This document shows positions 47,437 to 47,634 of a stretch of DNA of 64,000 bases, one piece after another. Numbering within the stretch: position 1 is the first letter of the stretch; each line of letters begins with the position of its first letter. The stretch lies in assembly GCF_036507355.1 (NCBI RefSeq), contig NZ_AP027877.1; one strand, 5' to 3'. The position numbers were made by a program, and so were the translations under genes. The notes under the pieces are model-generated. The model searched no databases. It was not told the DNA's origin and worked only from the letters and a program-made list of their open reading frames with translations. The DNA comes from Escherichia coli. GTDB lineage: Bacteria; Pseudomonadota; Gammaproteobacteria; Enterobacterales; Enterobacteriaceae.

Positions 47437-47479
47437 TCGTCGTAAACTGATTAACTGAGACTGACGGCAACGCCAAATT

Positions 47480-47580
47480 GCCTGATGCGCTGCGCTTATC
47501 AGGCCTACAAGGTGAGTTGCAATTTATTGAATTTGCACATTTTTGTAGGCCGGATAAGGCGTTTACGCCGCATCCGGCAA
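47480..47580. repeat. Pair of REP elements (BIME-like) in the fliC 3' UTR
   Basis: GCCTGATGCGCTGCGCTTATCAGGCCTAC and GTAGGCCGGATAAGGCGTTTACGCCGCATCCGGCAA in opposite orientation. Confidence 0.7.
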
Positions 47581-47610
47581 CATGAAGCGCAATTTGTCAG
47601 CAACGTGCTT

Positions 47611-47634
47611 CCCCGCCACCGGCGGGGTTTTTTC
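47611..47634 (+). terminator. Rho-independent terminator ending the fliC transcript
   Basis: CCCCGCC-ACC-GGCGGGG followed by T7. Confidence 0.8.

Follow-up and report, generated by a model that had tools for sequence, protein, structure and literature searches.

What does a flagellin gene of Escherichia coli carry between its stop codon and its terminator, if that interval holds two REP palindromes: a generic repeat element, or the gene of a small regulatory RNA? This question is raised by the fliC locus in a stretch of 64,000 nucleotides of E. coli DNA (contig NZ_AP027877.1; hereafter the window), to which all positions given below refer. In strain K-12, the sRNA FliX, which is sigma-28-dependent and Hfq-bound, is processed out of the fliC 3' UTR (Melamed et al. 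2023, eLife 12:RP87151, PMC10578931). The initial annotation of the window had pointed to this RNA, and its statement is borne out both by that paper and by the annotation of the K-12 strain MG1655 (NC_000913.3), where the ncRNA gene fliX (b4827), 195 nt in length, is listed at 2001912-2002106 and starts 3 nt past the fliC stop. We consider it very likely, with a probability of about 0.9, that the interval 47440-47633 of the window is the fliX gene of this strain and encodes a 3'-UTR-derived, Hfq-dependent sRNA.

The fliC locus and its 3' untranslated region

According to the ORF list, fliC (45769-47436, plus strand), the parent of the 3' UTR RNA, encodes a flagellin of 555 aa and ends with the stop codon TAA at 47434-47436. 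It is located between fliD (44097-45503, minus strand) and an intact fliA downstream (47756-48475, plus strand). An NCBIfam scan assigned the fliC product to the FliC/FljB family with 791 bits (cut-off 619). H-type names were sought by the same kind of scan for eight flagellins, and only this generic family was returned. The variable region of fliC is 100% identical to that of strain G4/9, and 97.1% identical to that of UPEC 536 and A0 34/86; over the 1.2 kb that were compared, G4/9 showed no difference at all. Because of the identity to 536 and A0 34/86, and since we take 536 and A0 34/86 to be H31, the allele is called H31-like here.

A sigma-28 promoter, TAAAGGTT-N11-GACGATAA, is found upstream of fliC at 45666-45692 (plus strand). 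It matches the established sigma-28 consensus exactly and is the same as in K-12. The whole fliD-fliC intergenic region, which contains this promoter and the 5' UTR of fliC, is identical to K-12 at 263 of 265 positions. Judged from its promoter sequence, the fliC mRNA would be of sigma-28 origin. On the other side of the gene, the spacer between the terminator and fliA (47635-47755) is near-invariant over the long and short E. coli alleles described below. Conservation of its core, CAAATAACCCCTCATTTCAC, extends to five other genera, and a sigma-28 -10-like sequence, GCCGATAA, lies at 47723-47730. This spacer presumably holds the fliA promoters.

From the stop codon to the end of the U-tract, the fliC 3' UTR measures 197 nt (47437-47633). 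The distance of about 200 nt that had been given from the stop to the terminator hairpin therefore holds for the UTR as a whole, but not for the gap in front of the hairpin, which is 174 nt. The UTR is closed by an intrinsic terminator at 47611-47633 (plus strand), as indicated by a terminator scan and by the fold, in which the hairpin CCCCGCC-ACC-GGCGGGG (47611-47627) is followed by T6 (47628-47633). This hairpin is the sole 7/7 G-C stem in the region. Hairpin and terminator are thus present as initially annotated, except that the U-tract stops at 47633, one base earlier than had been proposed. If the role of Hfq is carried over from K-12, this terminator would be both the 3' end of FliX and its Hfq-binding module. 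Unique sequence is found on either side of the repeats, namely a 5' arm of about 40 nt directly after the fliC stop and a stretch of 30 nt between the second REP and the terminator hairpin. The folding energy of the 194-nt RNA is -71.8 kcal/mol (z = -4.1 versus shuffles).

The presence of two REP palindromes between the fliC stop and the terminator was upheld by exact REP tails, by the pairing of their arms and by a match to the Rfam model naRNA4. Exact copies of the 14-nt REP tail CTTATCMGGCCTAC are located at 47495-47508 (plus strand) and at 47545-47558 (minus strand). Three matches to the tail were obtained in the 64-kb window, compared with 0.02 expected from shuffles, and two of them lie in the fliC 3' UTR; the sole other one, CCTATCCGGCCTAC at 6867-6880 (minus strand), has 1 mismatch. 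REP 1 (47478-47510, plus strand), located by its exact tail together with its inverted-repeat arms, is in forward orientation and makes the left arm of the element. It is typed as Z2-like on the basis of what we take to be the Y, Z1 and Z2 consensus sequences. REP 2 (47543-47580, minus strand), located by its exact tail, is in reverse orientation and of Y type, with hairpin arms at 47549-47562 and 47565-47578, and is the REP that is kept in FliX-S, the short form of FliX considered below. The arms 47495-47510 and 47543-47558 of the two REPs are 94% complementary. The 32 nt between them (47511-47542) form an AT-rich, L-like central motif, which was recognised by the Rfam model ES036/CssrF on the minus strand. 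REP-consensus palindromes are thus arranged here as an inverted pair around a conserved central motif, and the element is a BIME. An IHF-consensus-like site, with 1 mismatch to WATCAANNNNTTR, was read by eye on the minus strand of the central motif.

In its inverted REP pair, its central motif of about 32 nt and its extragenic and transcribed position from stop to terminator, the element is like other REP/BIME elements of the RIP/RIB type. BIME-1 has a Z1 arm; one arm here appears Z2-like. Unlike a plain REP/BIME, the element here makes up part of a defined sRNA, and its flanks are unique to the locus. The block 47461-47600 can also be read as a single large imperfect palindrome, in which the two REPs are flanked by the pairs CUGAC (47461-47465) with GUCAG (47596-47600) and CAAATTGC (47474-47481) with GCAATTTG (47589-47596). 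In addition, the 6-nt direct repeat GCAACG at 47467-47472 and 47600-47605 encloses a segment of 133 nt, and could be a junction signature or a product of chance.

Such a repeat invites an explanation that needs no regulatory RNA. The two REPs may be a generic BIME, which shields the fliC mRNA against exonucleases acting 3'-to-5' or serves as a binding site for IHF or gyrase, the sRNA being an inert decay intermediate. It is established that REPs stabilise mRNA. Moreover, the REP tail and the central motif are members of families that run to hundreds of copies in a genome, a median of 29 places per genome was matched by the 319-nt query, and Rfam models derived from REP/BIME sequences match the UTR. 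How far this explanation reaches depends on the results for K-12 FliX and on the flanks of the repeats, which are given in the following sections.

The same Rfam matches could be taken as signs of a separate REP-associated RNA, either naRNA4 on the plus strand or ES036/CssrF on the minus strand. The naRNA4 model matched 47548-47588 (plus strand) with 42.6 bits (E 1.3e-5), a partial match by which the Y-type REP hairpin is recognised, and ES036 matched 47501-47542 (minus strand) with 37.4 bits (E 2.8e-5). However, both scores are below the respective gathering scores (59.5 and 37.6), and the naRNA4 match is confined to the first REP hairpin of the 77-nt model, 42 model positions being skipped. 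Promoter-like sites were sought within 47437-47634, and none was found on either strand. What RF02564 naRNA4 (CssrE) and RF02751 ES036 (CssrF) have in common with the fliC 3' UTR is the Y-REP hairpin and the BIME central motif, so that the repeat module alone matches. This common sequence explains the matches, and a separate RNA of either kind is highly improbable. Rfam 15, as searched here, holds no FliX family and gave only these sub-threshold, REP/BIME-derived matches.

A small protein encoded by the 3' UTR is just as hard to credit. Two small ORFs, at 47485-47685 (plus strand, 66 aa) and 47505-47639 (minus strand, 44 aa), are indeed present in the mechanical ORF list. Against a coding role, they cross the REP palindromes and the terminator hairpin, their content is set by the repeat sequence, and none of the genomes examined has a coding annotation in this region.

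Correspondence with FliX of K-12

The reading of the interval as a fliX gene was examined by comparison with K-12. FliX of K-12 has a size of about 200 nt, and FliX-S, which is about 100 nt and contains one REP downstream of fliC, is more active than FliX (PMC10578931). The alignment to the K-12 fliC 3' UTR, which the initial annotation had suggested as a check, was run. It can be seen that the FliX orthologue in the window (47440-47633, plus strand, 194 nt) differs from the 195 nt of b4827 by 5 substitutions and by a U-tract that is shorter by 1 nt (U6 versus U7). The substitutions are at 47441, 47446, 47512, 47516 and 47584, and no differences from K-12 were found in 47517-47583 or 47585-47627. 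All of the differences fall outside the seed, the M1 triplet, the FliX-S start, both REP stems and the terminator stem.

Both RNAs occupy the same position, from 3 nt after the fliC stop to the fliC terminator, and both have the same order of parts, i.e. 5' arm, Z2-like REP, central motif, Y REP, seed and terminator. The seed, the M1 triplet, the FliX-S 5' end, the REP stems, the terminator stem and the sigma-28 promoter are identical. In contrast, the parental flagellins are different, being H31-like with 555 aa here and H48 with 498 aa in K-12.

The oligonucleotide table of PMC10578931 (supplement 3) supplied the experimentally used 5' ends of both forms, FliX and FliX-S, as well as the M1 and rpsS-M1 changes. 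The fliX +1 primer SM044 maps to 47440 with 2 mismatches. The FliX-S cloning primer SM673 corresponds to 47529-47553 with 0 mismatches, as do the Northern probes SM043 and SM675 to 47590-47617 and 47532-47566, respectively. Exact matches to the window were also obtained for reverse primer SM045 and for the M1 site in its wild-type version; the FliX-S gBlock has 2 mismatches to it. From primer SM673 and the fold, the equivalent of FliX-S, the shorter and more active processed form, is placed at 47529-47633 (plus strand, 105 nt).

The seed UUUGUCAGCAACGUG at 47593-47607 (plus strand) is the same as in K-12 and occurs as a single copy in the window; it is intact, with the M1 triplet GCA at 47600-47602. 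When six divergent long-form alleles were compared (those of K-12 and of the window and four further ones), the seed core CAGCAACGU was invariant, and K-12 was the outlier at 47441, 47512 and 47584. Position 47441, which is +2 of the K-12 FliX 5' end, is C here and U in K-12, C being found in 5/6 of the alleles. The U6 tract is present in 4/6. The long-form alleles are too alike to inform covariation analysis.

In K-12, FliX forms RIL-seq chimeras, and M1 (GCA to CGU) is a seed mutation that abolishes target binding. Binding of FliX-S-M1 in vitro was restored with rpsS-M1, a compensatory change of TGC to ACG. The chromosomal fliX-M1 mutation alters flagella number, with a mild phenotype (PMC10578931). 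Taken together with the binding of Hfq, these results argue against an inert decay intermediate as supposed for a generic BIME.

Sequence orthology and the integrity of every FliX element were seen in this allele, and, as far as can be told from the letters, the H31-like allele should yield an RNA equivalent to K-12 FliX. The feature itself is already known as a published and annotated sRNA, so that the finding is real but ordinary. That a non-K-12, H31-like flagellin allele keeps FliX intact is useful for annotation. In the PGAP/RefSeq records, the fliX interval is left without a feature in all of the genomes other than K-12 that were seen, for example G4/9, and because of this fliX appears to be systematically unannotated outside MG1655.

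FliX has its general plan in common with FlgO (from flgL), CpxQ (from cpxP) and SdhX (from sdhCDAB-sucABCD). Each of them is cut from a parental mRNA, the terminator of which becomes the Hfq-binding 3' end, and each has its seed just upstream of that terminator. FliX is unlike them in that its body is mostly BIME and its targets are chiefly inside coding sequences.

Predicted folding, processing and pairing

K-12 and this allele have the same predicted folds for both FliX and FliX-S. In full-length FliX of both alleles, the inverted REPs are predicted to pair into one long hairpin, the apical part of which is formed by the BIME central motif, with an apical loop at 47523-47532 (MFE helix list). 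The FliX-S 5' end, 47529, lies within this AU-rich loop of 10 nt. At the base of the hairpin, CUGACGG in the 5' arm (47461-47467, plus strand) is the predicted partner of UUGUCAG (47594-47600), the 5' half of the seed. This pairing extends the hairpin base in the long form only, and is also predicted for K-12 FliX. In the predicted fold of FliX-S, from which the 5' arm is absent, the Y-type REP folds alone. In such a model, the 5' arm CUGACGG would mask half of the seed in full-length FliX, and cleavage to FliX-S would activate the RNA. Since FliX-S loses the 5' arm, a cut in the apical loop would unmask the seed, and this predicted unmasking fits the published stronger action of FliX-S (PMC10578931).

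For K-12, it has been shown that FliX depends on sigma-28, is processed, binds Hfq and represses its targets (PMC10578931), and by analogy the same processing and repression would be expected in this strain. First, fliC would be transcribed from the sigma-28 promoter, with termination at the hairpin and U-tract (47611-47633). Secondly, endonucleolytic processing just past the stop would give an RNA of about 194 nt (47440-47633), and FliX-S of about 105 nt (47529-47633) would arise by a further cut, in the AU-rich loop at the tip of the inverted-REP hairpin. The single-stranded seed, flanked by the Y-REP hairpin and the terminator, may then pair within coding sequences, namely those of fliC and of three S10-operon genes, rpsS, rplC and rpsQ. 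Pairing would lower target expression, by which flagellum synthesis may be damped late in the flagellar programme. RNase E favours U at +2, and the 5' end of the long form could shift owing to the C at 47441, if it is RNase E that makes that end.

The S10-operon targets are located outside the 64-kb window. One of them, rpsS, is a near-invariant core gene: among 5,425 E. coli genomes, 5,236 have its validated target fragment at 99% identity or more. As for fliC, the seed was scanned against the gene with RNAduplex. Several sites of similar energy were obtained, the published site being the one shown in a figure of the paper, and the site at +405 to +420 (46173-46188, plus strand) is accordingly given as a candidate only. 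This putative pairing site is the strongest FliX duplex in K-12 fliC, and it is inside the fragment from +171 to +460 that was used for probing in the paper. Two synonymous changes from K-12, GTG to GTA and GCA to GCG, are found in it, one of them opposite the M1 triplet, and its predicted dG is -13.2 kcal/mol here versus -20.5 kcal/mol in K-12. Because of these changes and of the weaker predicted duplex, autoregulation of fliC may be weaker in this strain. Over nine alleles, the dG of the candidate site ranges, via synonymous changes, from -20.5 (K-12) to -8.7 kcal/mol, and does not follow the presence of FliX in the allele.

Long and short forms of the fliC 3' UTR

The distribution of the segment was examined in 5,426 complete E. 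coli genomes, a genome being counted as long-form if it matched the 319-nt fliC-fliA spacer over 80% or more of its length. The long form was present in 3,502 of the 5,426 genomes (about 65%), and short forms in 1,875 (about 35%), which together account for 5,377 of 5,426. Three kinds of short junction were distinguished: the H105 type (785 genomes), with a flagellin of 349 aa in strain H105, whose flagellin class we take to be H4; the RM13745 type (863 genomes), which includes strains labelled O103:H2, O45:H2, O6:H16, O25:H16 and O157:H16; and the AR_0015 type (227 genomes). Thus K-12, O157:H7 and UPEC 536 have the long form, while the H2/H16-labelled strains and H105 have the short one. In the short form, the stop is followed by about 20 nt and then by the same terminator, with neither REPs nor seed, and the 3' UTR measures about 40 nt in all. 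In three short-form genomes that were read, the fliC stop is 18-20 nt before the shared terminator, and in a ranked sample the genomes lacking the long form matched solely from the terminator onward.

Outside the REPs, the flanks of FliX are single-copy sequences. They were detected in 3,509 genomes, 3,476 of which have both of them, at a distance of about 170 nt. A second copy of the flanks was sought elsewhere in each genome, and none was found. Because the flanks are single-copy and kept together, the block of about 155 nt, consisting of unique flanks, BIME and seed, behaves as a single unit; and as the flanks are never elsewhere, the short-form genomes lack the FliX seed arm altogether. 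The notion that the seed flank itself is part of a repeated element was ruled out by the single copy of the non-REP flanks per genome.

In another scan, one genome per species was queried with a 20-mer that lies upstream of fliA and is invariant across every E. coli sequence examined. All 17 fliC-fliA junctions obtained, from Citrobacter, Pseudocitrobacter, Enterobacter, Buttiauxella and Lelliottia, were short. No Escherichia, Shigella or Salmonella record is among these results, so that the sister species lie outside the sample. Because 17/17 junctions in other genera are short, the short state seems to be the general enterobacterial one, and the long state looks restricted to Escherichia, as far as sampled.

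These data bear on the generic BIME from both sides. It can be said in its favour that 1,875 E. coli genomes and the 17/17 loci of other genera manage without the segment. On the other hand, the flank that bears the seed is not REP sequence, is single-copy and is always with the BIME. We therefore regard a generic BIME with an inert RNA as unlikely, although a generic role of the REPs is compatible with an sRNA role and the two are not mutually exclusive.

With FliX as the preferred reading, the absence of its segment from 1,875 E. coli genomes and from the 17/17 loci of other genera makes it look like a lineage-restricted, BIME-containing accessory sRNA. As the segment is wholly absent from about 35% of E. 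coli genomes, the FliX RNA is dispensable. We tentatively propose, at somewhat less than even odds, that FliX is a young accessory sRNA and not a fixed part of the flagellar circuit of E. coli, and that in its carriers the BIME hairpin is a cleavage-activated switch, which frees a half-masked seed. Because the segment is missing in about a third of E. coli, results on FliX of K-12 are not transferable to those strains, including O103:H2, O45:H2 and O6:H16. If this is true, short-form strains would be without this negative feedback on the expression of flagellin and ribosomal proteins. FliX would also be a natural example of an sRNA with a mobile-repeat module as its body, for which natural 'knock-out' alleles are available for comparison. 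The long/short dimorphism therefore matters somewhat more than the re-identified FliX. No mention of a within-species dimorphism of the fliC 3' UTR was found in papers citing FliX.

Insertion boundaries were sought by aligning short with long UTRs at cheap gap extension, and these alignments were inconsistent. Fragments that resemble REP, such as GCCTGAT..TACGCTTA, or TCGCCTGATTACGCTTAAA in Enterobacter as compared with GCCTGATGCGCTACGCTTATCAGGC in REP, are found in several of the short spacers. These may be decayed REP remnants, and because of them the direction of the change between long and short is not proven. Finally, a MAG labelled Collinsella sp. has two contigs with an E. coli-like fliC-fliA junction, one long and one short, and this bin looks like one contaminated by two E. 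coli strains.
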